Source of the DNA: Mobula hypostoma
Taxonomy: Eukaryota
Reading direction: 5' to 3'
NCBI RefSeq assembly: GCF_963921235.1
Contig: NC_086108.1
Span: 37,016,001-37,080,000, forward strand
Length of the DNA stretch: 64,000 nucleotides
Positions 4,511 through 41,179 of this stretch are shown piece by piece (the stretch's first letter is position 1; each line of letters begins with the position of its first letter). Position numbers and translations under genes: made by a program. The notes beneath the pieces were generated by a model. It did no database searches. It was not told the origin of the DNA and worked only from the letters and a program-made list of their open reading frames with translations.

Positions 4511-7464
4511 TTAGTCCCACTCCCCCGCCTTCTCACCATAACCTTTGATGCCCTGGCTACTCAGATACCTATCAATCTCTGCCTTAAATACACCCAATGA
4601 CTTGGCCTCCACTGCTGCCCGTGGCAACAAATTCCATAGATTTATCACCCTCTGACTAAAAAAAATTTCTTTGCATTTCTGTTCTGAATGGGCGCCCTTC
4701 AATCCTTAAGTCATGCCCTCTCGTAATAGACTCCCCCGTCATGGGAAACAACTTTGCCACATCCACTCTGTCCATGCCTTTTAACATTCGAAATGTTTCT
4801 ATGAGGTCTCCCCTCATTTGTCTAAACTCCAAGGAATACAGTCCAAGAGCAGACAAACGTTCCTCATATGTTAACCCTCTCATTCCCGGAATCATTCCAG
4901 TGAATCTTCTCTGTACCCTCTCCAATGTCAGTGCATGCTTTCTTAAATATGGAGACCAAAGCTGCCCACAGTACTCCAAGTGAGGTCTCACTAGCACCTT
5001 ATAGAGCCTCAACATCACATCCCTGCTCCTATACTCTATTCCTCTAGAAATGAATGCCAACATTGCATTCGCCTTCTTCACGACCGACTCAACCTGGAGG
5101 CTAACTTTAAGGATATCCTGAACGAGGACTCCCAAGTCCCGTTGTATCTCAGAACTTTGAATTCTTTCCCCATTTAAATACTAGTCTGTCCGTTTATTTT
5201 TTCTGCCAAAGTGCATAACCACACACTTTCCAACATTATATTTCATTTGCCACTTCTCTGCCCATTCTTCCAATCTATCCAAGTCTCTCTGCAGACTCTC
5301 CATTTCCTCAGTAGTACTGGCCCCTCCACCTATCTTCATATCGTCAGCAAACTTAGCCACAAAGCCATCTATTCCATAATCCAAATCGTTGATGTACAAT
5401 GTAAAAAGAAGCGGCCCCAACAGGGACCCCTATGGAACACCACTGGTAACTGGCAGCCAACCAGAATAGGATCCCTTTATTCCCACTCTCTGTTTCCTGC
5501 CAATCAGCCAACACTCTATCCACGTATGTAACTTTCTTGTTATTCCATGGGCTCTTATCTTGTTAAGTAGCCTCACGTGTGGCACCTTGTCAAAGGCCTT
5601 CTGAAAATCCAAATATACAACATCCACTGCATCTTCCTTGTCTAGCCTACTGGTAATTTCCTCAAAAAATTGTAATAGGTTTGTCAGGCAGGATTTTCCT
5701 TCAAGGAATCCATGCTGAGTTCTGCCTATCTTGTCATATGCCTCCAGGTACTCTGTAACCTCATCCTTGACAATCGACTCCAACAACTTCCCAACCACAG
5801 ATGTCAAGCTAACGGGTCTATAATTTCCTTTTTGCTTCCTTGCCCCCTTCTTAAATAGCGGAGTGACATTTGCAATCTTCCAGTCTTCCGGAACCATGCC
5901 AGAATCTATCAACTTTTGAAAGATCATCACTAATGCCTCCGCAATCTCCACAGCTACTTCCTTCAGAACAGGAGGGTGCATTCCATCTGGTCCAGGAGAT
6001 TTATCTATCTTTAGACTATTCAGCTTCCTGAGTACTTTCTCTGTCGTAATTGTGACTGCGCACACTTCTCTTCCCTGCCACCCTTGAGTGTTCGGTATAC
6101 TGCTGATGTCTTCCTCAGTGAAGACTGACGCAAACTACCCGTTCAGTTCCTCTGCCATCTCCTCATCTCCCATTACAATTTCTAGAGCATCATTTTCTAT
6201 CGGTCCTATATCTACTCTCACCTGTCTTTTACTCTTTATATACTTGAAAAAGCTTTTAATATCCTCTTTGATATTATTTGCTAGCTTCCTTTCATATTTA
6301 ATCTTTTCCCTCTTAATGACCTTCTTGATTCCTTTTGTAAGGTTTTAAAAACTTCCCAATCCTCTGTCTTCCCACTAATTTTTGCTTCCTTGTATGCCCT
6401 CTCCTTTGCTTTAACTTTGGCTTTGACTTCTCTTGTCAACCACGGTTGCATCCTTTTTCCACTCGAAAATTTCTTTTTTTTTGTAATATACCTGTCTTGC
6501 ACATTCCTCATTTCTTGCATAAACTCCAGCCACTGCTGCTCTGCTGTCTTTCCCGCCAGTGTCTCTTTCCAGTCAAATTTGGCCAGTTCCTCTCTCATGC
6601 CACTGTAATTTCCTTTACTCCACCGAAATACCGACACATCAGATTTCAGCTTCTCTTTTTCTAATTTCACAGTGAACTCAATCATGTTATGATCACTGCC
6701 TCCTAAAAGTTCCTTCACCTCAATCTCTCCAATCACCTCTGATTCATTACACAATACCAATCCAGTACATCCGATCCCCTAGTGGGATCAACTACAAGCT
6801 GTTCGAAAAAGCCATCTTGCAGACATTCTACAAATTCTTTCTCTTGAGATCCAGTGCCGACCTGATTTTCCCAATCTACTAGCATGTTAAAATCCCCCAC
6901 AATTATCATAACACTGCCCTTCTGACAAGCCTTTTCTATTTCCTGTTGTAATTTGTAGTCCACATCCCTGCAGCTGTTTGGAGGCCTATGAATAACCGCC
7001 ATCAGGGTCCTTTTACCCCTGCTATTTCTTAGCTCAACCCATAAAGATTCTGCACCTTCCGATCTTATATCACCTCTTTCTAATGATTTCATATCATTTC
7101 TTACCAATAAAGCCACACCTCCCCCTCTGCCTACCTTCCTATCCTTGCGATACACCGTGTATCCTTGGACGTTCAGCTCCCAGACACATGCATCCTTTAG
7201 CCAGGTCTCAATGATGGCCACAATATCATACCTGCCAATCAGTAGCTGTACGACAAGATCATCCACCTTATTCCTTATGCTGCGTGCATTTAAGTACAAC
7301 ACCTTAAGACCAGTATTTGATACTTTTCGCTTTGATTTCACTGCAACTTTATTGCACTGCAACTCATCCCAATGGCTACAAATTTGCCCCATCACCTGCC
7401 TGTCTTTCCTGACATCTTTACTGCTCACTATCTTAGATTTATTTCTGTTTTCCCCTTCCTCCAC
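4511..7464 (-). pseudogene. CR1 ORF2 (APE endonuclease + reverse transcriptase), broken by frameshifts and stops
   Basis: LNARSIRNK, ETWL, GGGVALLV, GDFN (APE); YRPVSLTS, YLDFQKAFDKV, SGVP*, FADD (RT); C-terminal RGDLIE. Confidence 0.92.
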
Positions 7465-7496
7465 TCTGTCATTCCGTTTCCCATCCCCCTGCCAAG

Positions 7497-8432
7497 TTAG
7501 TTTAAACCCTCCCTAACAGCTCCATTAAACTTTCCCGCCAGGATATTTGTCCCCTTCGGTTTTAGGTGTAACCTGTCCTTTTTGAACAGGTCATACTTCC
7601 CCCAGAAGAGATTCCAATTATCCAAGAATCTGAAGGCCTGCCCCCTACACCAGTCTCTCAGCCACGCATTCATCTGCCTGATCCTACTATCCTTGCCCTC
7701 GCTAGCCCGTGGCACAGGTAGCAATCCCGAGATTACTACCCTGGAGGTCCTGCTTCTCAGCTTCCTTCCTAACTCCTGGAAATCTCTCTTCAGGCCCTCC
7801 TCCTTGGTCCTATCTATGTCATTGGTACCAACATGTACCAAGACAACTGGCTGCTCACCCTCCCCCTTTAGAATATTCAGGACCTGATCCGAGACAACCC
7901 GTACCCTGGCACTTGGGAGGCAACACACCATGCGGGTATCTCTGTCAGGCTCACAGAATCTCCTGTCTGTTCCCCTGACTATGGAATCCCCTGTGACTAC
8001 CGCATTTCTCTTCTCCCTCCATCTCTCCTGCACAACAGCGTCAGGCTCAGTGCCAGAGACCCGGTCACCGTGGGCGTCCCCTGTCAGGTCATCCCCCTCA
8101 ACAGCATCCAGAACAAGATATTTGTTGCTGAGGGGGACAGCCACAGTTGTGGTCTCCACTATCCAGGCATTTCCCTTCCCTCTCTTGACAGTCACCCAGT
8201 TTTCTGACCCCTGTAGCCCAGGGATGACTACCTCCCTGTAGCTCCTGTCTATCACCTCTTCACTTTCCCTGATAAGCAGTAGATCATCAAGCTGCAGCTC
8301 CAGGTCCCTAACACGGTCTCTGAGGAGCTGCAACTCGGTGCACCTGGCGCAGATGTGGCCATCAGGGAGGCTGGAGTTCTCCCAGGATTCCCACATCTGA
8401 CACCCTGAACAAAACACTAACCCTGCAGGCAT
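7497..8432 (-). CDS. CR1 ORF1p: zinc finger/leucine zipper plus SGNH(GDSL) esterase-like domain, open frame (311 aa)
   Basis: CSGCQMWE...CARC, heptad LxxxVxxLExQL, GDSIVRG, HVGTNDI, DRLHL. Confidence 0.9.
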   Translation of the reverse strand: MPAGLVFCSGCQMWESWENSSLPDGHICARCTELQLLRDRVRDLELQLDDLLLIRESEEVIDRSYREVVIPGLQGSENWVTVKRGKGNAWIVETTTVAVPLSNKYLVLDAVEGDDLTGDAHGDRVSGTEPDAVVQERWREKRNAVVTGDSIVRGTDRRFCEPDRDTRMVCCLPSARVRVVSDQVLNILKGEGEQPVVLVHVGTNDIDRTKEEGLKRDFQELGRKLRSRTSRVVISGLLPVPRASEGKDSRIRQMNAWLRDWCRGQAFRFLDNWNLFWGKYDLFKKDRLHLKPKGTNILAGKFNGAVREGLN

Positions 8433-8999
8433 GCTATCTAATTCTACAGGGATGAAACAGGAAAAATAAGTCTACTCACCCACTTACCTCGCCAAACAGA
8501 CGATCTTTTTAAACCGTTAGCTCGTACCGTTAGCTGTGAGAGCCCTGCTGATCCCATCTGTCCAGGCCGATTTGCGAAAGGGGGGGGGGAGAAAAAAAAA
8601 GAGTTAGCGCTTCGCTTTCGCCTCTTCCCGTTTACTGCTGAAGCCCGTTGAAGCCAAAGCCCTACACTCTGCTACCACTCACTCCGCTGCCCGCTCCGAC
8701 AGCTGCTCGCTGTATAGGGTGGTCTCCTTTTTAAACTCTCCGTGTGGTCCTGTTGACATCACGCACCTGCGCAGTCTTGCCCTTCTTGCACTCGAAGAAG
8801 CTTTTAAAAAAAACTGCCTTCCTTCAGAATTCAGCTCCCACGACGCTCTGTAGTCCTGATCCAAAAAAAATAACATCGCTATCAAATTATGGATAAGAGG
8901 GATAAAAAGGATCTAAAGATTTAATTGAGGGAGAGGATTAGAGGGAAATAGCTAGTGTTACAGCTTTAGACATTCAAGGATTTTTGGGTGACAAATAAG

Positions 9000-11849: not shown

Positions 11850-14201
11850 TGCAACACACACAAAAGTTGCTGGTGGAACGCAGCAGGCCAGGCAGTACCT
11901 ATAGGAAGAAGTACAGTCGACGTTTCAGGCCGAGACCCTTTGTCAGGACTAACTGAGAGAAGAGATAGTAAGAGATTTGAAAGTGGGAGGGGGAGGGGGA
12001 GATCCGAAGTGATAGGAGAAGACAGGAGAGGGAGGGATGGAGCCAAGAGCTGGACAGGTGATTGGCAAAAGGGATACAAGGCTGGAGAAGGGAGAGGATC
12101 ATGGGACAGGAGGCCTAGGGAGAAAGAAAAGGGGAGGGAGCTCAGGGGAAGATGGAGAGCAGGCAAGGAGTGATTGTGAGAGGGACAGAGAGAAGAAGAA
12201 GAAAAAAGGGGGGGGGAAATAAAAATAGATAAGAGATGGGCTAAGAAGGGGAGGAGGGGCATTAACAGAAGTTAGAGAAATCAATGTTCATGCCATCAGG
12301 TTGGAGGCTACCCGGATGAAATATAAGGTATTGTTCCTCCAACCTGTGTGTGGCTTCATCTTGACAGTAGAGGAGGCCATGGATTGACATATTAAGTTCC
12401 CTGGCCCTCACCGCCTTATTTTCACCATCCTCCACCAGAAAGGTCTCAAAGCTGTCTGCTTCTTTTTGGATTCCAGACCTAACCAGTTTCCCTCTACCAC
12501 CACTCTCCTCCGTCTTACAGAGTTGGTCCTTATTCTTAATAATTTCTCCTTTGGCTCCTCCCACTTCCTCCAACTAAAGGTGTAGCCATGGGCACCCTTA
12601 TGGGCCCCAGCTATGCCTGCCCTTTTGTTGGCTTTGTGGAACAGTCTATGTTCCAAGCTTATACTAGTATCTGTCCCCCACTTTTCCTTCGCTACATCAA
12701 CAACTGCATTGGCTCTGCTTCCTGCACGCATGCTGAGCTCATTGACTTCATTAACTTTGCCTCCAACTTTCACCCTGCCCACAAATTTACCTGGTCCATT
12801 TCCAACACCTCCTTCCCGTTTCTTGATCTTTTTGTCTCTTTCTCTGGAGAGAACTTATCCACTGATGTCTACTATAAGCCTACGGACCCTCACAGCTACT
12901 TGGACTATTCCTCCTCCCACCCTGTCCCTTGCAAAAATGCCATCCCCTTCTCGCAATTTCTCCATCTCCGCCGCATCTGCTCTCAGAATGAGGCTTTTCA
13001 TTCCAGGACGAAGGAGATGTCCTCCTTTTTTAAAGTAAGGGGCTTCCCTTCCTCCACCATCAACTCTGCTCTCAAACATATCTCTCCTATTTCACGCACA
13101 TCTGCCCTCACCCCATCGTCCCGCTACCCCACTAGGAATAGGGTTCCCCTTGTCCTAACCTACCACTCCACCAGCCTCCGGGTCCAACATATAATTCTCC
13201 ATAACTTCTGTCAGCTCCAAAGGGATCCCACCACCAAGCACATCTTTCCCTCCCCCTCCTTTCTGCTTTCCACAGGGATTGCTCCCTATGCGACTCCCTT
13301 GTCCATTCGTCCCCCCCATCCCTCCCCACTGATCTCCCTCCTGGCACTTATCCTTGTAGGCAGAATAAGTGCTACACATGCCCTTACACTTCCTCCCTTA
13401 CCACCATTCAGGGCCCCAGACAGTCCTTCCAGGTGAGGCAACACTTCACCTGTGAGTCGGCTGGTGTGATATACTGCGTCCGGTGCTCCCGATGTGGCCT
13501 TCTATATATTGGCGAGACCCGACACAGACTGGGAGATCATTTCGCTGAACACTTACGGTCTGTCCGCCAGAGAAAGCAGGATCTCCCAGTGTCCACCCAT
13601 TTTAATTCCACGTCCCATCCCCATTGTGAAATGTTAATCCATGGTCTCCTTAACTATCAAGATGAAGCCACACTCAGGCTGGAGGAACAACACCTTATAT
13701 TCTATCTGGGTAGCCTCCAACCTGATGGTATGAACATTGATTTCTCTAACTTGTGTTAATGCCCCTCCTCTCTTTCTTACCCCATCCCTTATTTATTTTT
13801 ATTCCCCCCCATTTTTTCTTCTTCTTCTCTCTGTCCCTTTCACAATCACTCCTTGCCTGCTCTCCATCTTCCTCTGGGCTCCCCTCTCCTTTTTTTTCTC
13901 TCTAGGCCTCCTGTCCCATGATCCTCTCCCTTCTCCAACTCTGTATCCCTTTTGCCAATCAACTTTCCAGGTCTTGACTCCATCCCTCCCCCTCCTGTCT
14001 TCTCCTATCATTTCAGATCTCCCCCTCCCCCTCCCACTTTCAAATCTCTTACTATCTCTTCTTTCAGTTAGTCCTGACGAAGGGTCTCGGCCCAAAACTT
14101 CGACTGTACCTCTTCCTATAGATGCTGCCTGGCCTGCTGCAGTTCACCAGCATTTTGTGTGTATTGCTTGAATTTCCAGCATCTGCAGATTTTCTCAGGT
14201 T
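11850..14201 (+). mobile_element. 5'-truncated Penelope-like element with an inverted 3'-end copy (11850-~12391, minus) at its 5' side
   Basis: 12-bp TSD TGCTAATTTTCA at 11838-11849 and 14202-14213; RT and GIY-YIG ORFs; inverted duplicate of the pseudo-LTR. Confidence 0.92.
12588..13759 (+). pseudogene. Penelope RT C-terminal half plus GIY-YIG endonuclease (frameshifted)
   Basis: MGTxMGPSYA, FLRYINN (decayed YIDD), PFLDL, TDVYYKPTD, YLDYSSSHP; GVIYCVRCSRCGLLYIGET...RLGDHFAEH...GMNIDF. Confidence 0.9.
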
Positions 14202-15227: not shown

Positions 15228-17619
15228 AGTTCAAAGTAAATTTTATTATCAAAGTCATCATCTTCAACCCTGAGAGTCATTTTCCTGTGGTCATATTCAG
15301 CAAATCTATAGAATAGTAGCTATAACAGGATCAATGAAAGATCAACCAGAGTGCAGAAGACAACAAACTGTGCAAATGCAAATGTAAATAAATACAAAAC
15401 AAAAGAAGAACATGAGATAATGAGATAAGGAGTTTTTAAAGTGAGATCATTGGTTGTGGGAATATTTCCATGATAAGGTAAGTGAGTGTACTTATTCTCT
15501 TTCATTCAAGAACCTGCTGGTTGAGGGGTAGTAACTATACTTAAAACCTGGTGATGCGAGTCATAAGGGTCTTGTACCTTCTCCTTGATGGCAGCAGCGA
15601 GAGAGACCATGACTTGGGTAATACAATCTCTGATGATGGATGCTGCTTTCCTATAAAAGCATTTCATGTAGATGTTCTCAATGGTTGGGAGGGCCTTACT
15701 ACTGATGTACTGAGCCGAATCCACTATCTTTTGTAGGATTTTTGGTTCAAAGGCTTTGGTGTCCCCATAACAGGCTGTAGTGCAGCCAGTTAATACACTT
15801 TCCACTACACATCTATAGAGGTTTGTCAAAGTTTTAGATGTCATGCTGAAACTCCGTAGACTCCTAAGGAAATAGAGGCATTGCCTTGAATTCTTCACAA
15901 CTGCACTTATGTGCTGTGCCCAGCACAGATTATCTGAAATTGTAATATCCAGGAATTTAAAGTTACTAACCCTCTCTACCTCTGATCCTCCGGAGAGGAC
16001 TGGTTCATGGATCTCTGGTTTCCTTCTCCTGAAGTCTCTGATCATTTCCCTGGTCTTGCTGACATTGAGTAAGAGGTTGTTGTTATGACACCACTCAGCC
16101 AAATTTTCAATCTCCCTCCTATATGCTGATTCATCGCCACCTTTGATTTGGCCCTCAACAGTGCTGTCATCAGAAAACTTAATTATGGCATTGGATCTGT
16201 GCTTAGCCACACAGTCATAGGTGTAAAGCGAGTGGAACAAACAGCTAAGCACACAGCCGGATGATGCACTTGTTCTGATGGAGATCGTGGAGGAAACATT
16301 GCTGCCAAACCAAACTGACTGGAGTCTACATGTATGGAAATCCAGGACCCAATTACACAAGGAGGTGTTGAAGCCAGGGTCCTGGAGGTTATTGATAAGT
16401 TTTGAGGGGATGCTGGCATTGAATTTTGAGCTGCAGTCAATAAAAAGCATCCAGATACAGTATATGCACATTTGCCTTCCAGATGTTCCTGGATTGAATG
16501 AAGAGCCAATGAGCCAATGACACGGCATCTGCTGTGGGCCTGTTGCTCCGGTAGGCAAATTGGAGCAGATCCAAGATGCCACTCAGACAGGAGCTGATAT
16601 GTTTCATCTCCAGCCTCACTGTGGGCGTAAGTGCAACTATGCAGTAGTCATTGAGGCAGGCCGCCATGCTCTTCCTGGGCACTGGTGTAATTGACGCCGA
16701 TTTGAAGCAGGTGGGTACCCCACACTACAAAAGTGAAAGGTTAAAGACCTCAGTGAAAACACACCAGCTAGTTGGTCAGCACAAGTCTTTGGTACGTGGC
16801 CTGGTACCCCATTCGGTCCGGATGTTTTTCGTGGATTCACCATCCTGAAGGCAGCCTGCGTGTCAGCTTCAGAGACTGAGATCATAGGATCATCAGGAGA
16901 TGTGGGGGCTTACGATGGTTTTGCCACGTTCTGGTGGTCAAAACAAGCATAGAAGAAATTCAGCTCTGCTGGAAGCGAATCCCTTTTGTCCCCTCTCTTA
17001 TGTTGCTTGATTTAACTTAGTAGGAAATGCTAGTATTCAAGCACTACCACATCCCTCGTTGTTTCAAGTTTGGACCGGAATTTCCATTTCGCTCATGAGC
17101 TGGCTTTCAGAAGATCATACCTGCACCTCTTGTAGCTTTCTTGGCCTCCAGACTTGAATGGTCTTCAGCAGATTTTGGACCTCATGGTTCATCCAGGGCT
17201 TTGTATTGGGGAAGACTCTAAGTGATTAAGTGGGCACATGCTCATCCACAGCTGTTTTAGTAACGTCCAATACAACCATGATGTACTCATTCAGATTTCT
17301 AGATGAATGCTTCAACATGGCCCAGTTCAGTGACTCAAAACAATCCTGTAATCACTCTTATGTCTCCTGAGACTACCTCTTAGTTGTTCTGATCTGGAGG
17401 CCTTGCTTTTTAGCCTCTGCCTGTATGCAGGTAGGAGGAGAACAGCCAAGTGATCCAATTTATCAAAATGCGATCTGGGTGAGGAACGGTAGGCAGTGGT
17501 CTAGTATGTTGGTGCTACCTCTGGTGCTACAGGTTATATGCTGCTCATAATTGGTCAGTGTTTTCTTCAAACAAACCTGTTTGAAGTGTCTGACTATAAT
17601 TTGAAATGCGTCGAATGGT
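15228..17619 (-). mobile_element. Rex1/Babar-type LINE, decayed RT
   Basis: ORF 15506-16582: LFIDCSSKFN, LYTYDCVA, KFSDD, EWCHNNNLLLNVSKT, YRCVVESVLT; upstream SGPNGVPG. Confidence 0.85.
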
Positions 17620-19447: not shown

Positions 19448-21543
19448 GAGTGGGAATAAAGAGAGTCTTTTCTGGTTGGCTGCCAGTGAGAAGTGGTGTT
19501 CCACAGGGGACGGTGTTGGGACTGCTTCTTTTTATGTTATATATCTGTGATTTGGATGACAGAATTGTTCCTTTTGTGGTCAAGTTTGTGGATGTACGAA
19601 GATAGGTGGAGGGGTAGGTAGTATTAAGGAAGCAAGGAGGCTGAAGAAGGACTTAGGCAGATTAGGAGAATGGGCAAAGAAGTGGCAGATGGAATGTAGT
19701 GTTGTGAGTGTATGTTCATGCACTTTGGTAGAAGGTATAAAAGCATAGACTTTGTTCCAAACCGGGAGAAAATAAAGAAGTCCACCGTGCAAAGGGACTT
19801 GGGAGCTCTCGTGCAGAATTCCCTAAAGGTTAATTTGCAGGTTGAGTTGGTGGTGGGGAAGGTAAGTGCAATGTAAGCATTCATTTTGAGACGACTAGAA
19901 TATAAAAGCTAGGATGTAATGCTAAAGCTTTATAAGGCACTTGGAATATTGTGAGCAGTTTTGGGCCCCTTATTTAAGAAAGGATATACTGCTATTGGCG
20001 AGGGTTCAGAGGGGGTTCATGAGAACAATTCCAGGAATGAAAGGCTAATAATATGAGGAACGATTGATGGCACTGTGCCTTTACTCACTGGAATTTAGAA
20101 GAATGAGGAGCAATCCCATTGAAACCTATTGAATGTTGAAAGGTCTAGATAGTGTGGATGGGGAAAGGATGTTTGCTGTGGTAGAGGAGTCCAGAACCAG
20201 AGGGTACAGCCTCAGAATGGAGGGATATCCATTTAGAACAGAGATGAGGAGGTATTTCTTTAGCTAGAGGGCATTAAATTTAGTGGAATTCATTGCCAGA
20301 CGTAGCTGCGGAAACTGTTCATTGGGTGTATTTAAGGCGGAGGTTGATGGGTTCTTGATTAGTTGGGTCATGAAAGGTTATAGGGAGAGGTCAGGAGAAT
20401 GGGGTTGAGAGGGAAATGGATCGGCCATGATGAAATGGACTCAGTGGGCAAAATGGCCTAATTCTGCTCCTTCTGCTCCTGTATGGTCTTATGGAAAACC
20501 ACTAATCATAGACCTCCAGATAGAATAAGACCCTTCGACCTCTACCCTCTGTGATATGTTGCCAATCCAGTTCTGAATTCAAATGGCCAATTCACCATAA
20601 ATCCCATTGGTGAATTCACCATTGATTCTGGCTGAGCCTCCCATGGGGGACCTTGTCCAATGTCTTACTAAAATCCATGGAAATGATATCCACAGCTCTA
20701 CTTTGTCACCTCATCAGAAAAATACAATCAAGTTGGTAAGACTCAACTCGCCCTGCAAAAAGCCATGTTTTTTCAAATGTTCATTAATACTATCCTTAAG
20801 AATTCTTTCCAGTAACTTATCTACAGCTGAAGTAAGACTCAGCAGTCAATAGTTGCTAGGAGTATCCTTGTTTCCCTTTTTGAATAATGGAACACCGTTA
20901 GCTACTTGCCAGTTATTGAGGACTTCTTCTGTGGTTAGAGAGGACATAAAGATGTTGGTCAAAGCTTCAGCAATCTCATCTCTTGCCTAGCTCAATATCT
21001 CATCATGCCATGGGTACTTATTCACCTTAACACTGATCTCCATATCCACCACATTCTTCTCTTTGGTAAATACTTACTTAGGATCTCACCCACATCCTCT
21101 GCATTTAAGCAAATATTCCCCCCTTTATCCTTAAGTGGTCCTAGTTATCCTCTTGCTGTTGGTGTACGCCTAGGATTCCTAGTCATTCTCTTTAATTCTG
21201 CTAGCCAGGGACCTTTTATGGCCTTTCCTGCCAGTTTGATTTTAGATTCCTAGGCTTTATGCAATTTTCCTTTCTCGTCTTGACTAAATTCATCACCTTG
21301 CTCGACATCCAAGGTTCTCTTACCTTTCCCACCCTTGTCCTTTCTTCTTACTAGAATACACCTGATGTGTATTCTGTGAGGTTGGTCTTTAAACACCCTC
21401 CACATGTCAGATGTAAAGTTTCCCGAAAACAGCTGTTCCCAATTACCTCTCCCTAGTTCCTGCCTAATGCTAACGTGGTTTGCTCTGCTTCAATTTAACT
21501 TTCTCCCACAAGGTTCATAGTTATTCGTGTAGAATTAGATAGC

Positions 21544-22506
21544 ATGCCTGCAGGGTTAGTGCTTTGTTCAGGGTGTCAGATGTGGGAATCCTGGGAGAAC
21601 TCCAGCCTCCCTGATAGCCACATCTGCGCGAGGTGCATCGAGATGCAGCTCCTCAGAGACCGTGTTAGGGATCTGCAGCTGCAGCTTGATGACCTACTGC
21701 TTGTCAGGGAAAGTGAAGAGGTGATAGACAGGAGCTACAGGGAGGTAGTCATCCCTAGGCTACAGGAGTCAGTAGTCATCCCTAGGCTAGAGGAGTCAGA
21801 ACACTGGGTCACTGTTAAGAGAGGGAAGGGAAATGCCCGGATAGTGGAGAGCACCCCTGTGGCTGTCCCCCTCAGCAACAAGTATCTTGTTCCGGATGCT
21901 GTTGAGGGGGATGACCTGACAGGGGACGCCCACGGTGACCGGGTCTCTGGCACTGATCCTGGCGCTGTTGTGCAGGAGAGAAGGAGGGAGAAGAGAAATG
22001 CGGTAGTCGTGGGGGATTCCATAGTCAGGGGAACAGACAGGAGATTCTGTGAGCCTGACAGAGATACCCGCATGGTGTGTTGCCTCCCAGGTGCCAGGGT
22101 ACGGAATGTCTCGGATCGGGTCCTGAATATTCTAAAGGGGGAGGGTAAGCAGCCAGTTGTCTTGGTACATGTTGGTACTAATGACATACATAGGACAAAA
22201 GAGGAGGTCCTGAAGAGAGATTTCCGGGAGTTAGGAAGGAAGCTGAGAAGCAGGACCTCCAGGGTAGTAATCTCGGGATTGCTACCTGTGCCACGTGCTA
22301 GCGAGGGCAAGAGTAGTCGGATCAGGCAGATGAATGCCTGGCTGAGAGACTGGTGTAGGGGGCAGGGCTTCAGATTCTTGGATAATTGGGATCTCTTCTG
22401 GGGGAAGTATGACCTGTTCAAAAAGGACAGGTTACACCTGAACCCGAAGGGGACCAATATCCTGGCGGGAAAGTTTAATAGAGCTGTTAGAGAGGGTTTA
22501 AACTAA
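21544..22506 (+). CDS. CR1 ORF1p (zinc finger/leucine zipper + SGNH esterase-like), open frame (320 aa)
   Basis: Same motifs as copy A; in-frame 27-nt tandem duplication VVIPRLQES-VVIPRLEES. Confidence 0.9.
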   Translation: MPAGLVLCSGCQMWESWENSSLPDSHICARCIEMQLLRDRVRDLQLQLDDLLLVRESEEVIDRSYREVVIPRLQESVVIPRLEESEHWVTVKRGKGNARIVESTPVAVPLSNKYLVPDAVEGDDLTGDAHGDRVSGTDPGAVVQERRREKRNAVVVGDSIVRGTDRRFCEPDRDTRMVCCLPGARVRNVSDRVLNILKGEGKQPVVLVHVGTNDIHRTKEEVLKRDFRELGRKLRSRTSRVVISGLLPVPRASEGKSSRIRQMNAWLRDWCRGQGFRFLDNWDLFWGKYDLFKKDRLHLNPKGTNILAGKFNRAVREGLN

Positions 22507-22574
22507 ATTGGCAGGGGGATGGGAACCGGAATGATAGAGCGGAGGAAGGGGAAAACAGAAATAAATTTAAGATA

Positions 22575-25450
22575 GTGAGCAGTAAAAATGTCAGGAAAGA
22601 CAGGCAGGTGATGGGGCAAATGTGTAGCCATTGGGATGAGTTGCAGTGCAATAAAGTTGCAGTGAAATCAAAGCAAAAAGCATCAAATACTGGTCTTAAG
22701 ATGTTGTACTTAAATGCACGCAGCATAAGGAATAAGGTGGATGATCTTGTTGGACAGCTACAGATTGGCAGGTATGATATTGTGGCCATCACTGAGACCT
22801 GGCTAAAGGATGCATGTGTCTGGGAGCTGAACGTCCAAGGATACACGGTGTATCGGAAGGATAGGAAGGTAGGCAGAGGGGGAGGCGTGGCTTTATTGGT
22901 AAGAAATGATATGAAATCATTAGAAAGAGGTGATATAAGATCGGAAGGTGCAGAATCTTTATGGGTTGAGCTAAGGAATAGCAGGGGTAAAAGGACCCTG
23001 ATGGCCGTTATTTATAGGCCTCCAAACAGCTGCAGGGATGTGGACTACAAACTACAACTGGAAATAGAAAAGGCTTGTCAGAAGGGCAGTGTTATGATAA
23101 TTGTGGAGGATTTTAACATGCGAGTAGATTGGAAAAATCAGGTCGGCACTGGATCTCAAGAGAGAGAATGTGTAGAATGTCTGCGAGATGGCTTTTTCGA
23201 ACAGCTTGTTGCTGAGCCCACTTGGGGATCTGCTGTACTGGATTGGGTATTGTGTAATGAACCGGAGGTGATTGGAGAGATTGAGGTGAAGGAACCCTTA
23301 GGAGGCAGTGATCATAACATGATTGAGTTCACTGTGAAATTAGAAAAAGAGAAGCCGAAATCTGATGTGTCGATATTTCAGTGGAGTAAAGAAAATTACA
23401 GTGGCATGAGAGAGGAACTGGCCAAAGTTGACTGGAAAGAGACACAGGCGGGGAAGACGGCAGAGCAGCAGTGGCTGGAGTTTATGCAAGAAATGAGGAA
23501 TGTGCAAGACAGGTAAATTCCAAAAAAGAAGTTTTTGAGTGGAAAAACCATGCAACCGTGGTTGACAAGAGAAGTCAAAGCCAAAGTTAAAGCAAAGGAG
23601 AGGGCATACAAGGAAGTAAAAATTAGTGGGAAGACAGAAGATTGGGAAGTTTTTAAAACCTTACAAAAGGAAACCAAGAAGGTCATTAAGAGAGAAAAGA
23701 TTAACAATGAAAGGAAACTAGCAAATAATATCAAAGAGGATACTAAAAGCTTTTTCAGGTATATAAAGAGTAAAAGACAGGTGAGAGTAGATATAGGACC
23801 GATAGAAAATGATACTGGAGAAATTGTAATGGGAGATGAGGAGATGGCAGAGGAACTGAACAAGTATTTTGCATCAGTCTTCACTGAGGAAGACATCAGC
23901 AGTATACCGGACACTCAAGGGTGACAGGGAAGAGAAGTGTGCGCAGTCACAATTACGACAGAGAAAGTACTCAGGAAGCTGAATAGGCTAAAGGTCGATA
24001 AATCTCCTGGACCAGATGAAATGCACCCTCCTGTTCTGAGGGAAGTAGCTGTGGAGATTGCGGAGGCATTAGCGATGATCTTTCAAAAGTCGATAGATTC
24101 TGGCATGGTTCTGGAAGACTGGAAGATTGCAAATGTCACTCCGCTATTTAAGAAGGGGGCAAGGAAGCAAAAAGGAAATTATAGACCTGTTGACTTGACG
24201 TCGGTGGTTGGGAAGTTATTGGAGTCGATTGTCAAGAATGAGGTTACAGAGTACCTGGAGGCATATGACAAGATAGGCAGAACTCAGCATAGATTCCTTA
24301 AAGGAAAACCCTGCCTGACAAACCTATTACAATTTTTTGAGGAAATTACCAGTAGGCTAGACAAGGAAGATGCAGTGGATGTTGTATATTTGGATTTTCA
24401 GAAGGCCTTTGACAAGGTGCCACACATGAGGCTACTTAACAAGATAAGAGCCCATGGAATTACAGGAAAGTTACATACGTGGATAGAGCGTTGGCTGATT
24501 GGCAGGAAACAGAGAGTGGGAATAAAGGGATCCTATTCTGGTTGGCTGCCGGTTACCAGTGGTGTTCCACAGGGATCAGTGTTGGGGCTGCTTCTTTTTA
24601 CATTGTACATCAACGATTTGGATTATGGAATAGATGGCTTTGTGGCTAAGTTTGCTGACGATACGAAGATAGGTGGAGGGGCCGGTAGTGCTGAGGAAAC
24701 AGAGAGTCTGCAGAGAGACTTGGATAGATTGGAAGAATGGGCAGAGAAGTGGCAAATGAAGTACAATGTTGGAAAGTGTATGGTTATGCACTTTGGCAGA
24801 AAAAATAAACGGGCAGACTATTATTTAAATGGGGAAAGAATTCAAAGATCTGAGATGCAACGGGACTTGGGAGTCCTCGTACAGGATTCCCTTAAATTTA
24901 ACCTCCAGGTTGAGTCAGTAGTGAAGAAGGCTAATGCAATGTTGGCATTCATTTCTAGAGGAATAGAGTATAGGAGCAGGGATGTGATGTTGAGGCTCTA
25001 TAAGGCGCTGGTGAGACCTCACTTGGAGTACTGTGGGCAGTTTTGGTGTCCTTATTTAAGAAAGGATGTGCTGACGTTGGAGAGGTTACAGAGAAGATTT
25101 TCACTAGAATGATTCCGGGAATGAGAGGGTTAACATATGAGGAACGTTTGTCCGCTCTTGGACTGTATCCCTTGGAGTTTAGAAGAATGAGGGGAGACCT
25201 CATAGAATCATTTCGAATGTTAAAAGGCATGGACAGAGTGGATGTGGCAAAGTTGTTTCCCATGATGGGGGAGTCTAGTACGAGAAGGCATGACTTCAGG
25301 ATTGAAGGGCGCCCTTTCAGAACAGAAATGCGAAGAAATTTTTTTAGTCAGAGGGTGGTGAATCTATGGAATTTGTTGCCACGGGCAGCAGTGGAGGCCA
25401 AATCATTGGGTGTATTTAAGGCAGAGATTGATAGGTATCTGAGTAGCTAG
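22575..25450 (+). pseudogene. CR1 ORF2 (APE + RT) with a few stops and frameshifts
   Basis: ORFs 22575-23516, 23535-23924, 23937-25112 and 25043-25450 are colinear; SDHN, GVPQGSVLG, FADDTK. Confidence 0.92.
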
Positions 25451-33127: not shown

Positions 33128-35491
33128 TACAGCCCTCAAAACTGAACTACTTTGAGTATTTCTAATAACTCTGAGAGTAAGATGATGGAATGATACGTTT
33201 TATAATTTCATGGCTTGAAACACCCAAGTTAGAAAGCACTTAGAAATCAATATGATGTGTAGACTTATAGATGACAGGGAGTTGGCAGTTTCCCATGACT
33301 AAAGAACACAAGTAAGCCTATTAGCCTTCCACAATAGACTGGACGTTTTCACAGTTCTTTTCATTTGATCTCAGAATCAATGCTTGCTGCTCTATTTGTG
33401 AAACCATCCCTAATGCAATATTTGCACAATGTACCAAGAATAGATTTTGCAGTGATCTAAGGAGAAAAGAATGGTCATGAATTTAAAGTAAAAAGTAATA
33501 GCATGTTTACTTTGTATCCCATTATTAGTGTATAAATAATCTAATTGGTTTGTAATGAGGCAGGGAGACAATATAAGTTACTATCCGCCACCAATTACTA
33601 GCCAATTTATGTTATTTTGGCTGGGGCCTTGCATCCGAGTGCCAAGTAGTTACAACTTTCATGTAGTTAAAATGAATTAAATGTACTTGCTAGCAAGTCA
33701 GAGCTGGTAATTAATAATGTATAAATGTTGACAAAGGAGACATTTATGTTCCAGCAAAGCCATTCAATCTCTTTAGCTCCAAAAACGGAATAATTGGGAA
33801 ATTGAAATATCATCTCTGCAGGTAATAAATATATTTTAAAGATTTTATTCTTATGAAAAACCCTTCCTATTGTTTCCTAATTCCTTTTTGTTCTCTTAGT
33901 CCAATCATTCTTTCTCACTGAGACTCTCAGAAAGTCATTTTGCTTCAAGGAACCAAATGGCGATAGCGTGTTTATGCTGTTCTTAAATTTGTTCCATTGA
34001 AGCTAATGTTGTACGTAATTCAAATACTGCTAAATCACTTCTAGCTCAACCAGAGGACGAATTTCTCCAATACTCTTTCTTTCTCAACCTATCTTGTTTC
34101 TAATTCAATTAATCACTTCATTGTCATACCTTAGGTCTTTGTCTATCCATACATCTCATTGGTTAAAGACTTAAAATGACCATCCCAAAATTCACAAATA
34201 TTCCTATTATTTCTTACCTTATCTTGTTCCTATTGGCCTACATTTGCAGAAATTCAACTGAAGGGTATTAGAAAAATATCTAATAAAAGCAGCAATTTGT
34301 GAGAAAGTTGACTCCAGCAAAGTTTGGGCCAATGTTTACATTGCAAACGAATGTTCAAGATGTGTTCAATAATTTGTTTGCCTCACTGGAAATGTTCACA
34401 CTCCATTCAATAATTTTATCCATATTTTGCTAAAGGCCATCCCATTGTCATATGGCCAGCTGATATTTCCCATTCTGGTACGCATTCATCACATTAGGAT
34501 CCATCTGCCATCCCTAAGCTCATCTGTTCAATTGCTCCTTTGACTGCTATCTTTATTTTATGCTTGCCACCTGGACACATGGATTAGAGTCATCAGTAAA
34601 TTCTGGAAGGCTGCAATTATCAGTCTTGTACATTTTCCTTATAGTTTGTTTCAACAACAGAAATGTGTTGATGAGTCCCACAGGAGCTCCTGTTTCATTT
34701 CAACCAGTGGCAAGGACAATATCTAGATTATAAAGAAATATTACTTACTATTATTGCTAACCTGACACAATTAAACTGTATTTGAGTTAATGGCATGCAA
34801 GTCACCTCCAAGAGAAATGAGGAACAGACAGCAAATTGATCAGCTGAAGTGATGCACAATAAAAAAACAATGAATGCCTCCTGCCAAACTAAGGAAAATT
34901 AATGTTTCAAATCTGCCAGTTATTTACTCCAAATGTTGTTCTAATTGCCTACATGGACTAGTCTAAAGAGCAGAAGGGAGATATGTGGATATATATATAT
35001 ATATATATATTAGGAAAAGTCATTTGCTCTGTTGCTGCACTATGTCACATTCAATTTGCATTTCTATACCCTCTTGATAATTTGATTAAATTTCTTGACA
35101 TCAGGTAAGATGCTAAATATGTCCAATCCCTCTGAATATGATGGCTATGGTCCAAATTAATGTGACTGGTAGTACTGTACGAATAATAGTTATTCATATT
35201 TTAACTTCTTTGTATAAACGTCACTAATTTCTAACTACATAATTGCTACCCTTTTTATAGATCAGACCTCTGATTTATGACCTCCTAATAATAATAATGG
35301 AAGTCTGGTCCCTCCTTCAAGAGTAACTTGTAGTTATATATCATCTGCAACTAACAAAATGCCCCGAGGATTATCAGAGAGATGTTATCAAATACAATAT
35401 CACATAAAGAGTAGCAGGACAGATGATATAAGTCTCATGAAAGATATTTTTGAAGGACTTTGTTCAAAGGGAAAGAAAGAAATAATGTAAC

Positions 35492-35720
35492 TGTGGTAAA
35501 CCATGTATATATGGTGTAACTCGGTTACCTGTCTGGACACACCCCTCTGCTGACTGCCCCTGTGGCTCCTCCCACAGAGTCCTGTATAAAGGTGTTCACC
35601 TTGCCCCTCCCCCTCAGTCCGGGGGCAGACACTCACTGTGGAGGTCGTATTGTACAGCGAATAAAAGCCTTTCAGTATTTTACCAAACCTCAGTCTTTTG
35701 GAGTAATTGAAGGTGCTTCA
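35492..35720 (+). repeat. 5' LTR
   Basis: TATAAA at 35585, AATAAA at 35660; 3 substitutions versus the 3' LTR (counted by eye). Confidence 0.97.
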
Positions 35721-35746
35721 ATTTTATTCACTGTACGTTTTAAAAC

Positions 35747-36838
35747 ATGGAACAGGCCCTGAGACCAGACAAATTAGACCTCAATCCGCAAACACCTGAA
35801 GCTGGAAACGCTTTCGAACTCTGGCTGGCCTGCTTCGAAGCGTATCTAGAGGAGATTAAAGCGACCGACCCCGTAGCGAAGCGCAGAGTTCTACTCTCCA
35901 GGGTCAGTTCACGGGTCTATTCGCTGATCAGAGACCAGCCGAACTACGATGGCGCGATGAACGCACTCAAAAGACAATACCTGTGGCCGATAAACAGCGT
36001 CTATGCTCGGCACTGTTTAGCAACACGGCAACAACGGTCCGGGGAATCGAGTGCTGTGTTTGTCCACGCCCTACGGACACTTGTGCGGGCCTGAAATTGC
36101 CAGGAGCTGACGGCGACGCAGCATGCAGAACTCCTAGTGAGGGACGCCTTCGTTACGGGGACCAGGTCAGTGTACGTGCACCAGCGGCTGCTGGAAAAAG
36201 CCGATCTTACCTTAAGTTCGGCGATCGAGCTGGCTGATATGTTGGAGGCCACTCTGCATAACTCCGAGGCTCTCCAGGCACGTGATCCCCCGATGGCCTC
36301 GTGGGTGCCACAGACCCCGCAACCCGCCGGCGAATCAACCTCGGCTGCTGCCAGTCGTGAGTCCGCGAAGTGCTACTTCTGCGGACTGGAGAAGCACCCC
36401 CGGAAGCGCTGCCCAGCCCGACAAGCTACCTGTTCCAGCTGCGGAAAGAAGGGCCACTTCGCCAAGGTCTGTAAGTCAAAACCGCGAGCGGGATCGAGCA
36501 GCGCCGCGTGCGAGACGTGGGGGTCGCCATCATGCCTGCCGCCATCTTCCCTGCACGCCACCACCATGTGCGAGACATGGGGGCGGCCATCTTCCCTGCA
36601 CACTGCCACCACGTGCGAGACATGGGGGCCGCCATCTTCCCTGTCGCCATCTTCCCTGCACGCCGCCACCACGTGCGAGACATGGGGGCCGCCATCTTCC
36701 CTGCACGCCGCCACCACGTGCGAGACATGGGGGCGGCCATCTTGGTCGGCGCCACCTCCCACCGCCTACGTCCAACGGGTGCTCACGGGCACCCCACCAC
36801 GCCGGACCAAGACAGCGACCCCACCCTGGCTTCCGTGA
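35747..36838 (+). pseudogene. gag: Gag with two CCHC zinc knuckles; one in-frame TGA at 36092-36094
   Basis: ORFs 35747-36094 and 36137-36838 share a frame; CYFCGLEKHPRKRC and CSSCGKKGHFAKVC. Confidence 0.9.
36505..36745 (+). repeat. 45-bp minisatellite (~5 imperfect units) in the gag/pol overlap
   Basis: Unit CTTCCCTGCACGCCGCCACCACGTGCGAGACATGGGGGC(C/G)GCCAT, encoding SSLHAATTCETWG(P/R)P. Confidence 0.92.
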
Positions 36839-39833
36839 CCCCAGACCAAAGCGCTCCCCACCAGCTCGCAAGGTCAGTGATGGACATCCTGGTGGAGGGG
36901 CACAGGACAAGCTGCCTGTTTGACACAGGCAGCATGGAGAGTTTTATCCACCCAACAACGGTGCAGCATTGTGGACTCATGATACGGCCGGTAAGTCGGA
37001 GGGTCACCATGGCCTCCAGGTCGCATACAACAGACATCCGGGGGGGTTGTGTAGCGACACTAGTGGTGCAGGGCACAGAATATCGGGACTTTAAGTTACT
37101 GGTCTTGCCTCAACTGTGTGCCCCTGTGCTGTTGGGGTTGGACTTCCAGAGCCACCTGAAAAGCGTGACAATGAAGTATGATGGGCCCCTCCCGCCAATT
37201 ACTGTCATAAATCCCCTGTTTTGTAGAGATATGTCACGTACCCCACTACTGACCACACACACACACCGACCCGCGCATCCCACCCAACATCATGCCAACT
37301 GCCACACTACCGACACCACTTGCGGCCTCTCCACCCTCAGGATCCCTCCCCTACCGCTGTTCGCCAACCTGACCCCCAACTGTAAACCTGTGACAACTAA
37401 AAGCAGGAGGTACAGCGCGGGGGACAGAGCTTTCATTAAGTCGGAGGTGCAGCGGCTGCTCAGGGAGGGGGTCATTGAGACAAGCACAAGTCCTTGGAGG
37501 GCGCAGGTTGTGGTTGTTCGGAACGGGGAGAAGAATAGGATGGTCGTGGACTATAGCCAGACCATCAATAGGTTCACGCAGCTCGACGCGTACCCTCTAC
37601 CCCGCATCGCGGATATGGTCAATCAGATAACACAGTACAAAGTGTACTTGACCATAGACCTAAAATCCACTCACCATCAGCTCCCCATCCGCAGGGAGGA
37701 CCTCCCTTACACTGCCTTCGAGGCGGACGGCAGGCTTTATCAATTCCTGCGCGTCCCCTTTGGTGTCACGAATGGTGTATCTGTCTTCCAGAGGGCAATG
37801 GACCAGATGGTGGACCAGTGCCAACTGAAGGCCACGTTCCCATATCTGGATAACATCACCATCTGTGGTCACGACCAGCAGGATCACGACAACAACCTCC
37901 AAAAATTTCTCCAAGCGGCCAAATCTTTCAACCTCACCTATAACAAGGACAAGTGTGTATTTGGGACCACCCGACTTGCTATCCTTGGGTGTGTCGTGGA
38001 GAATGGAGTCATTGGCCCTGACCCCGACCGTATGCGCCCCCTGTTGGAACTCCCTCTTCCCATTACCCTCAGAGCCCTCAAAAGGTGCCTGGGCTTCTTT
38101 TCATATTACGCCCAATGGGTCTCTAACTATGCAGACAAGGCCCACCCCCTGGTCAAGTCCACCACATTCCCCCTCTCTGCCGAGGCCCACACGGCCTTCA
38201 ACCGCATAAAAGGGGACATTGCCAAAGCAGCAATGCATGCGGTGGATGAGGCCATTCCCTTCCAAGTAGAGAGTGACGCCTCCGACTTTGCGCTGGCTGC
38301 TACCCTCAACCAGGCAGGAAGACCAGTGGCATTCTTCTCCCGTACCCTTCAAGGCCCTGAAATTCGGCACTCTGTGGTAGAGAAAGAGGCCCAGGCCATA
38401 GTGGAAGCTATAAGGCACTGGAGGCACTATCTTGCCGGCAAAAGGTTCACCCTGCTAACTGACCAGCGCTCAGTCGCATTCATGTTTAATAATCAGCAGC
38501 GGAGCAAAATCAAAAATGTTAAAATTCTGACATCATGTACAGGCCTGGGAAGCTCAACGAGCCCTCCGATGCCCTATCCCGGGGAACATGCGCCAGCACG
38601 CAGATCGACCGGCTATGCGCCCTACATGTAGACCTTTGCCACCCGGGAGTCACCCGGCTTTTCCACTTCGTGAAAGCCTGGAACCTGCCTTACTCCCTTG
38701 AGGAGATCAGGATGATGACCAGGGACTGCCAAGTCTGCGCAGAGTGCAAACCGCACTTCTACCGACCCGAAAAGGCACCACTCATCAAGGCCACCTGCCC
38801 CTTTGAGCGACTGAGTGTTGACTTTAAGGGCCCCCTTCCCTCCACCGACCACAATGTGTACTTTCTTCACGTAATTGACGAGTACTCGCGGTTCCCCTTC
38901 GCCATCCCCTGCCCCGACACCACTACCACGTCAGTTATAAAAGCCCTGCGCAAGCTCTTCACTCTGTTCGGATACCCATGCTATATCCACAGTGACAGAG
39001 GGTCCTCGTTTATGAGTGATGAGCTGTGTCAATATCTACTGGCTAGGGGAATTGCGACCAGTAGGACCACGAGCTATAATCCCCGGGGGAATGGACAGGC
39101 AGAGAAGGAGAATGGCACAGTGTGGAAAGCCACACTCTTAGCCCTCAGGTCAAAGGGACTGCCGGTCTCCCGCTGGCAGGAGGTCCTTCCCGAGGCACTC
39201 CACTCCATCCGCTCCCTGTTATGCACAGCCACCAATGCCACCCCCCATGAGCGGCTCTTTTCTTTTCCCAGAAAATCGTCCACTGGAACCACCCTACCAA
39301 CTTGGCTGACATCCCCGGGGCCAGTGCTGCTCCAGAAACATGCGAGGAGCAATAAATACTCCCCGATGGTCGAGAGGGTTCACTTACTTCATGCGAACCC
39401 CCAGTATGCCTATGCAGTTTTACCTGATGGGCGGGAGGACACGGTCTCCATCCGGGACCTGGTGCCCGCAGGAGCACCGGGCCCCTACCCTGAACACTCC
39501 GTGGTGACTATTGACCCCGTACCACCAATGTATGTACCTACGAGACACCGTGCACCCCAAACCCTATACAGACACCACACGACACTCCCATACCGGGCGC
39601 GACGCACACGCACGAGGGATTACCGACGCCTAACGTGCTGGCACCTGAAGTCAGGCCGGAGCCAGCACAACCGCCATCGCCAGTGCTATGTAGATCACAA
39701 TGACGGACTCAACCGCCTGATAGACTTAACCTGTAGATATACTTCTTGTAAATATTGTCAGTCACTTCACCCCGTGGGACTCTTTTTAAAAAAAGGAGGG
39801 GTGAATGTGGTAAACCATGTATATATGTTGTAA
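36508..39833 (+). pseudogene. pol: Pol (protease, RT, RNase H, integrase) in the -1 frame relative to gag; frameshifting deletion near 38528
   Basis: LFDTGS; SPWRAQVVVV, DAYPLPRI, VPFGVTNG, YLDN; SDASDF, EKEAQAI, TDQ; HHCC, VDFKG, HSDRG, NGQAEKEN. Confidence 0.93.
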
Positions 39834-40034
39834 CTCGGTTACCTGTCTGGACACACCCCTCTGCTGACTGCCCCTGTGGCTCCTCCCACAGAGTCCTGTA
39901 TAAAGGTGTTCGCCTTGCCCCTCCCCCTCAGTCCGGGGGCAGACACTCACTGTGGAGGTCGTATTGTACAGCGAATAAAAGCCTTTCAGTATTTTACCAA
40001 ACCTCAGTCTTTTGGAGTAAATGAAGGTGCTTCA
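39806..40034 (+). repeat. 3' LTR
   Basis: Direct repeat of 35492-35720, preceded by the PPT. Confidence 0.97.
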
Positions 40035-41179
40035 GTAACAAAATGATTGAAGGAAAGAATTCTCAAGCTTAGGTCTTTAGCAACTAAAAACCTACCTACC
40101 AATGAATGCAGTGGTTAAAATTGGTCAGAATTAGAGGACCACAGGTCTCAGAGGATTCTGGGTGTTATGTAGATACTCCTAAATTAAGGCCAATGTTTAA
40201 TTTCATATTTCTAAAGAATCCATCAAATAATTTCCGTGTTTTTGTTCATCTCTTGTCATGCATGTTCACAGGCATGGCGATTTATGCAGGTTACATGGAA
40301 GTTTATTTTGGTTGCTTTCATAAAGAGATACTACCAAATGAACAACAATGAAAGAGCAGTAAGCTGAACACGGTCTTGCTCCCAATTGCCGTTACTAATC
40401 TGATCTAGAAGTGAAATTGTATACCTTGTCTGCTTGAGTCACTTTGGACTCTAGCATTGTGGTCTAAGTAGTTGGAAGTGTTGTGTATTTAATATTTCAG
40501 TAGCTTTTGTGTAACTTTGTAAATATATTGTTTGATTAAGCATGCTTTCTTTGTTTATATAATTCATTACGGATTATATCTAAAAGTACATGAATGGCAT
40601 ACATCATTACACCGCCACGTAATATGCGCACACCTCATTAAAGTAGAAACAAAAAGTACATGTTATCCCCAGCTCCCATGTTTTTCTTTCAACTGTTTTT
40701 TATGTTTTGGGGTTACAAAACATTATAGTGGCAATGAGGAAATTTTAAAATGAACCTGAGATGACTACCTACCTGTTGAAGCACAGCACGTTTTTTTATT
40801 TGCAAGAGGAGAAGGAGAAATATTTGAGTGAAAAAATGCAGCACATGTTTTTTGAAAAGGGACACAAAATGGATGAAACTCATGGGTTCATAAACAGTGA
40901 GTACTGAGTGATAATAATAATAATAAGTAAATTAAAAAGAAACAGAAATGGCTGGCTACATGGGAAAGATAGACAGCTTTGGTTGCACAAGAGATAGCTG
41001 GGTTACGTATACTGAGTGAAATGAGCAATTTTTTTAAAGAAATGGAAGAGCCAATGAGAAACAAATACTAGTTTTGTTGAGTGTAATTTGTGGAAAAACA
41101 TACAGTTTGCTTAGAAATTTAGCTGATCCAACCAACCCAGCCAAAATGAGCTTTGCTGATTTCATGAGCATAATGCAGG

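Follow-up and report, generated by a model that had tools for sequence, protein, structure and literature searches.

Complementarity between the primer-binding site and its own LTR suggests self-priming of a Gypsy retrotransposon in Mobula hypostoma

Which RNA primes reverse transcription of a Gypsy element whose primer-binding site (PBS) does not start with the TGG of a tRNA-type PBS? The question is raised by an element located in a 64,000-nt stretch of Mobula hypostoma DNA (contig NC_086108.1, positions 37,016,001 to 37,080,000 of the forward strand; hereafter the window). An initial annotation had pointed out that this PBS is complementary to a segment of the element's own LTR, and had offered three options for the pairing: priming by an internal R segment, priming by the trimmed 3' end of the RNA, or masking of the 5'-LTR poly(A) site. 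We analysed the element, its copies in the genome and its distant relatives; the features of the window copy are collected in Table 1.

Table 1. Features of the Gypsy element in the window (positions are those of the window)
Feature	Position (strand)	Remarks
Gypsy LTR retrotransposon, 4,543 bp	35492-40034 (+)	LTRs, TSD, PPT, gag + PR-RT-RNase H-IN
Left target-site duplication (TSD) GTAAC	35487-35491 (+)	Same as 40035-40039
5' LTR, 229 nt, TG..CA	35492-35720 (+)	Start shared with the other listed copies
TATA-like TATAAA	35585-35590 (+)	Putative promoter element
Inr-like CTCAGTCC (CTCAGT)	35613-35620 (+)	From sequence; five fossil stops at 35612-35617
LTR segment pairing with PBS	35652-35666 (+)	14/15 plus covariation; predicted 3' end of self-primer
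AATAAA inside duplex	35660-35665 (+)	Predicted paired in 5' context, unpaired (0.81-1.00) in 3' LTR context
GCCTT, conserved as RC	35667-35671 (+)	Directly 3' of LTR segment; 19/20 relatives
8-bp U5-end hairpin	35705-35723 (+)	Overlaps PBS; competes with R-U5 stem
PBS	35722-35736 (+)	1 nt (A35721) past LTR end; without TGG
gag	35747-36838 (+)	ATG 11 nt 3' of PBS; two CCHC-type knuckles
Frame with protease, RT (motif YLDN) and RNase H	36475-38631 (+)	
Integrase frame	38523-39833 (+)	Without chromodomain
Polypurine tract (PPT) GGAGGGGTGAA	39795-39805 (+)	
3' LTR, 229 nt	39806-40034 (+)	226/229 identical to 5' LTR (3 differences)
Right TSD GTAAC	40035-40039 (+)	

The element has the organization of a Ty3/Gypsy retrotransposon, with gag followed by PR-RT-RNase H-IN, direct TG..CA LTRs, a TSD and a PPT, and the two CCHC knuckles of its Gag lie in the ORF at 36095-36838. 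The window copy is decayed: its gag is interrupted by a stop codon (36092-36094), and its integrase frame is out of register with the RT-RNase H frame. A search of the 3.48 Gb Mobula hypostoma genome with the LTR plus the gag start as query gave 2,136 candidate loci. Between the Gag knuckles and the protease lie tandem repeats of 45/15 nt (36504-36758), the number of which differs among copies. Summed contig depth, which is not a copy number, was far higher over the LTR than over the internal region, and this difference suggests that related genomes contain many solo LTRs. The RT active site (window region 37829-37870) reads YxDN instead of YxDD. Among 46 metagenome loci, YxDN was found in 25 and YxDD in 12 (nine were unreadable), and 9/10 named proteins also carried YxDN, indicating that a high-copy family has proliferated with an Asn where a catalytic residue normally stands. 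Elements with either motif have the PBS duplex. The two ends of the polyprotein are alike, as Gag starts with an RP(E/D)(R/K)LD-like motif and integrase ends in PP(E/D)RLDL (L031:2190-2230 and 5700-5746; P0137). The rest of the window consists mostly of decayed repeats (647-1495, 4656-8471, 12543-13759, 15506-16582 and 21499-25450), which we take from their motifs to include LINE-like ORFs in either orientation, containing RT and endonuclease-like frames, as well as one fragment that is Penelope-like or of GIY type and another that resembles a transposase.

No TGG was present after the 5' LTR end. Instead, 35722-35736 matches the reverse complement of 35652-35666 in 14 of its 15 letters, a match reached by none of 20,000 shuffled LTRs, and the duplex ends 1 nt from the LTR edge. 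The partner segment holds an AATAAA, recurs in the 3' LTR and lies 67 nt downstream of TATAAA (~65 nt in the initial annotation, which was borne out on all of these points). The single mismatch, A35730, had been ascribed to CpG decay. This reading is right, as 24 of 29 copies carry a G there (A in four, C in one). When the leader was folded, 12 of the 15 duplex pairs were predicted at a probability of 0.98-1.00, the exceptions being the mismatched position and the final two A pairs. The 8-bp hairpin proposed to span the LTR end exists in the sequence, but is outcompeted in the predicted fold by a rival R-U5 stem, its six pairs outside the PBS having a probability of 0.00. Over 14 hand-picked copies it showed one double change and 89% paired cells; thus it is at most an alternative fold.

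The initial annotation had proposed that copies and relatives be aligned for covariation between the PBS and the LTR segment. In 73 distinct ordinary 5' ends from the Mobula hypostoma genome (out of 90 loci), 1041 of 1095 cells were Watson-Crick, compared with 971 in the best of 2,000 permutations. Positions 35652, 35656, 35658 and 35659 change on both sides of the duplex between subfamilies of this genome. A formal count over 14 hand-picked copies found double changes in four of the 15 pairs, and five of six slid controls were without any. Thus, at the level of sequence, the duplex in the primer position covaries. This result bears on the idea that the primer is a host RNA, be it a tRNA, a tRNA half or another, and that the match to the LTR is incidental. 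Four PBS variants in one genome, and about 20 across relatives, each follow their own LTR, which no tRNA can explain. In addition, a TGG-initiated PBS matching a tRNA 3' end was found neither in the window nor in the relatives inspected, no tRNA family matched 35450-35800 at E≤10 in a search of this region, and no tRNA gene was found within the 64-kb window. We regard a host-RNA primer as scarcely credible. A tRNA match of the PBS, or complementarity that did not covary, had been named at the outset as the outcomes that would speak against self-complementarity; the complementarity covaries, and ~20 different PBS sequences cannot all match a tRNA.

The pairing is also kept in distant relatives from metagenomes. 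The closest named proteins were from Mobula and Hypanus, and named-protein relatives at 47-61% identity were from corals, anemones, molluscs, flatworms, nematodes and spiders. A metagenome scan gave 80 loci, of which 36 had a gag start and enough upstream DNA to be scored; three were too close to a contig end and 41 had no gag start. An inverted repeat score of at least 10 was obtained for 29 of the 36 scorable relatives compared with 20 of 432 shuffles, and a score of at least 12.5 for 23/36 compared with 6/432. Several of the 36 are copies of one family, leaving ~20 different PBS sequences. The 29 keep the pairing with different letters, with an 11-nt duplex in L105. L056 also pairs, 13/13 over a shorter loop. 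The duplex was absent from six of the 36, whose 5' ends appear decayed, replaced or LTR-less, and none of these six had a TGG at the PBS. Ten of 12 curated elements had their own LTR as the best fit for the PBS, and in ten of 12 the PBS began 1 nt past the CA. The layout in relatives is an LTR end CA, usually one A and then TTT(T)A, and in 19 of 20 relatives the partner segment terminates in an A-run with RC just behind it (14 of them have RCC). RT identity to the window was 45-61% for most relatives in which it was measured, and duplex-bearing elements were scattered over a quick-search tree composed of clade members. Among viral contigs no relative of the element was found, despite eight pattern matches.

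As the HIV-1 polyA hairpin masks the poly(A) signal of the 5' LTR, the AATAAA inside the duplex could have a similar meaning. In the predicted folds it is paired at the 5' end and free at the 3' end (Table 1), so that masking is structurally feasible in the window family. The hexamer at the duplex is AATAAA or ATTAAA in eight of 20 relatives, but the duplex is kept in the other 12, where the hexamer is non-canonical. Masking is therefore not the conserved function and at most an added role; judged from the predicted folds, it may be a side benefit in the window family, a suggestion that we hold to be less likely than not. That the duplex exists to mask the signal, with something else acting as the primer, is very improbable, as the partner occupies the primer-binding position with no other PBS present, and the fold-backs and primer-like copies described below would be left unexplained.

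The duplex has left traces in the genome. In three of 30 loci, where they were first seen, the PBS continued into inverted upstream LTR and not into the gag leader. Targeted patterns for this arrangement gave 51 + 21 + 8 matches and backwards-pattern controls gave none; the exact pattern gave 28 matches compared with 443 ordinary 5' ends, and palindromic mini-elements amount to ~6 per 100 ordinary 5' ends. We examined 82 of these fossils individually (L171-L241, L273-L280, L165, L292 and L293). Extension to the LTR start or its first 15 nt was observed in 72, these being mostly ~405-nt palindromes with two U3 ends, and ten of the 72 continued beyond the PPT into internal sequence, implying that the template was an RNA 3' end or a full plus strand. 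A 5-bp target duplication (≤1 mismatch) was present in 28 of the 36 fossils with scorable flanks, showing that they are integrase products and not assembly errors. Thus DNA synthesis continued beyond the PBS into the upstream LTR, and the products were integrated. Any LTR-derived primer is compatible with the 72 fossils extending to the LTR start, since long palindromes follow from any primer carrying the LTR segment. We consider it highly probable that the primer is derived from the LTR, by Tf1-like self-priming of some kind.

Where the RNA starts can be predicted from the sequence. The first T of TATAAA lies 31 nt upstream of A35616 in the Inr-like motif, and A35616 is thus the predicted transcription start; against this, older subfamilies have AATAAA in place of TATAAA. 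The ten fossils that end early all do so within 35612-35638, five of them at 35612-35617. Only one of these five, L199, is clean: it ends opposite G35617, has three untemplated nucleotides added and is flanked by a 5-bp TSD. Of the other four, L172 and L229 stop at microhomologies, and L186 and L201 extend 4-5 nt further; L275 and L207 end at a cryptic CA. Binomial tails of ~1e-4 calculated for the stops near 35616 were discarded as overstated, given the microhomology or cryptic CA at several ends. The stretch 35598-35617 is also splice-acceptor-like, with a pyrimidine run and CAG, and a T-rich run plus CAG occurs 10-20 nt before the duplex in invertebrate-type relatives (L073, L084, L087, L099, L103 and L052); an intron or a trans-splice in the leader is possible. 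The LTR stretch was contained in 14 runs, all as assembled contigs, and in the contigs of eight runs neither an RNA start or end nor a poly(A) tail was seen, nor was there a splice joint at 35617.

The left-hand sides of the fossils bear on where minus-strand synthesis stopped. In eight of the 82, a minus-sense U5-R piece is present and is folded back at the CTTTT register, 35663-35667 with 35695-35699, and none of the 82 used any other listed 5-8 bp fold-back register. In L179, L214 and L235 the left side joins other sequence at 35662-35667. Left-hand junctions therefore number 11 at 35662-35667 and none at 35616, which matches the traces expected from minus strong-stop DNA with its end at the A-run, although the end position is blurred by 5 nt since fold-backs need microhomology. 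These junctions weigh against a primer formed by the 3' terminus of a genomic RNA (the element's own or a co-packaged one) after trimming or cleavage back to the 3' LTR's A-run, as such a primer predicts a strong stop near 35616. It would account for the 72 fossils that traverse all of U3 and the ten that pass the PPT, and for fossils with arms from different subfamilies. In the comparison of arms in 37 palindromic fossils, CpG decay swamped the signal, no switch point could be fixed and only L213 and L165 were clearly heterologous; their arms show that a second RNA served as template. The number of two-ended mini-elements does not rank the models, since integration favours such elements. As a weak point against an RNA-3'-end primer, a pattern for poly(A) retrocopies gave no matches: in no copy is the segment followed within 30 nt by a poly(A) run. 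Overall, we judge priming by the RNA 3' end to be unlikely.

Another arrangement is that of plain Tf1, in which the RNA would start at or near G35652, or the leader would be clipped, and the 15 paired nucleotides, cut after the A-run, would be the primer. The covariation and the fold-back fossils are expected here as well, and a 15-nt copy annealing to the 3' repeat would also give palindromic mini-elements. Moreover, the breaks of L021, L281 and L169 fall on the 15th nt or shortly before it, i.e. at the PBS end, which fits a 15-nt primer. In L021 (2803-3213), which is rearranged, an inverted LTR+PBS piece and an LTR piece both end exactly at G35652, the 5' edge of the duplex; both ends lie at one shared internal microhomology. 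However, the PBS-end break pattern gave one match compared with 28 extensions, a count to be read with the fact that this pattern catches only about a third of such breaks. Furthermore, no TATA is found 25-30 nt before 35652, TATA and Inr together indicate 35616, and ten copies end 29-56 nt into the extension with none ending within 35507-35611 (one more is deleted there). We therefore find the plain Tf1 arrangement improbable.

An unbiased scan for junctions to internal sequence found four in 35656-35667 and two in the control window, few events in either case. It gave 38 matches (33 examined), and the control gave 15 (eight examined, plus L188); the 38 were mostly small LTR deletions. As cut-site junctions, L254 and L259 were rejected as chance matches and L253 as a later insertion; L258 and L282 were left without assignment. 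LTR deletions of 10 nt that end on G35667, with loss of AATAAAA, recur in two subfamilies, and one 8-nt duplication starts at G35667 (loci L255, L262, L264, L246, L268, L272 and L267); first jumps misplaced from a strong stop at this position would fit them, as would simple short-repeat slippage. In one contig the PPT (window 39805) directly abuts the U5 end in reverse complement, beginning two nucleotides past the LTR, and this single record is possibly another aberrant priming product.

The initial interpretation is supported, and among its three options for the pairing, priming by an internal R segment fits the fossils best. The RNA would start near A35616, and 35652-35666 would pair with the PBS across a ~55-nt loop, a step borne out by the covarying complementarity. 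By analogy with Tf1, the RT would then cut within the TAAA(A) run or immediately 3' of it, ahead of the conserved RCC, with the cut site predicted before 35667; this would place a 3'-OH one or two nucleotides from the LTR edge. The element's own RT would probably make the cut, as described for Tf2. Such an internal cut would free a capped primer of ~50 nt with its last 15 nt paired, and on the sequence data, with few clean fossil events, we lean towards this version, including the start near 35616. Minus strong-stop DNA would end at ~35663-35667 and jump to the 3' repeat, which would have to reach beyond the cut, and the primer would remain attached and be copied by the plus strand; fossils support both steps. 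Normally, only the 15 paired nucleotides of the primer copy would be retained. A longer primer copy could anneal to the 3' LTR of an RNA and run through U3, yielding palindromic mini-elements of ~405 nt, with U3 at either end, for insertion by integrase.

More broadly, we tentatively suggest, as a plausible though not yet probable reading, that the RT of a widespread animal Gypsy clade recognises TAAA/RCC ~50 nt inside its RNA, that self-priming in this clade is of an independent form, using a long capped fragment cut at this site and overlapping the poly(A) signal, and that its attached-primer copies are a new class of integrated palindromic mini-elements recording RNA start and cut sites. 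Self-priming has so far been established in Tf1/sushi chromoviruses and predicted in a few plant lineages, and tRNA-free priming in a large animal lineage would surprise a specialist. Whether hairpin priming is older than tRNA priming in LTR elements is an open proposal in the excerpt of PMC3601003, on which a large chromodomain-less animal lineage that self-primes would bear. An internal cut, if true, would imply that the RT-RNase H cleaves an RNA duplex in a sequence- or structure-specific way at a distance from the cap, for which the conserved TAAA/RC motif is an exact test substrate. The fossils indicate that intermediates of reverse transcription can be mapped from a repeat-rich genome without the bench, and they account for a class of short palindromic repeats that annotation would misfile. 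PBS finders based on tRNAs would miss this clade.

Mag elements have a two-knuckle Gag and are primed by tRNA. Our element resembles the Mag lineage in being compact, with short LTRs, two CCHC knuckles and no chromodomain, a Mag-like placement being conceivable, and differs from it in being probably self-primed. The Mag lineage (A, B and C clades, Cigr-1, MolGy3/11) also ranges from cnidarians to vertebrates according to excerpts of PMC2774666 and PMC6238403. The excerpts of PMC6238403, PMC3587641, PMC2774666, PMC8556966 and PMC13524379 contain no PBS data for the clade. In the literature covered by our search, which included few subscription papers or Repbase reports, self-priming in a non-chromovirus animal Gypsy clade was not reported, nor were such primer-copy fossils. 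For the Tcn1 chromoviruses and the TAR/Houba/Osr-1 Copia elements, both of plants, self-priming has been predicted where PBS and LTR are complementary over 10 nt or more (PMC6317226, in excerpt); these belong to different lineages and hosts, and in that excerpt the prediction stands alone, without covariation or fossil mapping. Skipper of dictyostelids and the fungal Copia element GalEa are also without a canonical tRNA PBS, and unusual priming has been proposed for both (PMC5006619 and PMC6934838, in excerpt). In these excerpts, Skipper has a polypyrimidine stretch without an LTR partner (PMC5006619), and GalEa has an internal hairpin, not PBS-LTR pairing (PMC6934838).

The closest parallel in mechanism is with the Tf1/sushi chromoviruses. 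In Tf1 and Tf2 of Schizosaccharomyces pombe, Tj1 of S. japonicus and Tosmo/Tcry, as in our element, the PBS lies just after the 5' LTR and is complementary to an LTR segment, not to a tRNA. In the excerpts of bioRxiv 2022.12.06.519325 and PMC4600332, the primer of Tf1, Tf2 and Tj1 is the mRNA's 5' end held within a three-duplex fold, and their integrase carries a chromodomain; this primer is cut from the RNA by the element's own RT (PMC5341516 and PMC4600332, in excerpt). About half of Tf1 cDNA retains a copy of the PBS at its 3' end, and Tf1 RT adds untemplated nucleotides (PMC11042837, in excerpt), both of which match the fossils by analogy. Predicted folds of 12 elements of our clade showed a central helix, often with a hairpin just 3' of it, and no common flanking duplexes as in the three-duplex pretzel. 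No Chromo match was obtained in the window or in four Pol proteins from relatives at E≤0.1; thus we do not file the element under Tf1/sushi. The missing chromodomain supports the initial suggestion of a different Gypsy branch; the match to Ty3 RT-RNase H was 147 bits compared with ~430-640 bits within the clade. Unlike Tf1/sushi primers, which sit at the very 5' end of the RNA, the duplex of our clade (13-19 bp) is predicted to lie ~36 nt inside it: TATA-Inr and the truncated fossils point to a start 36 nt upstream, whereas three loci break at the 15th nt. It also ends, unlike theirs, in a conserved TAAA(A)/RC, with a poly(A) hexamer in some families.
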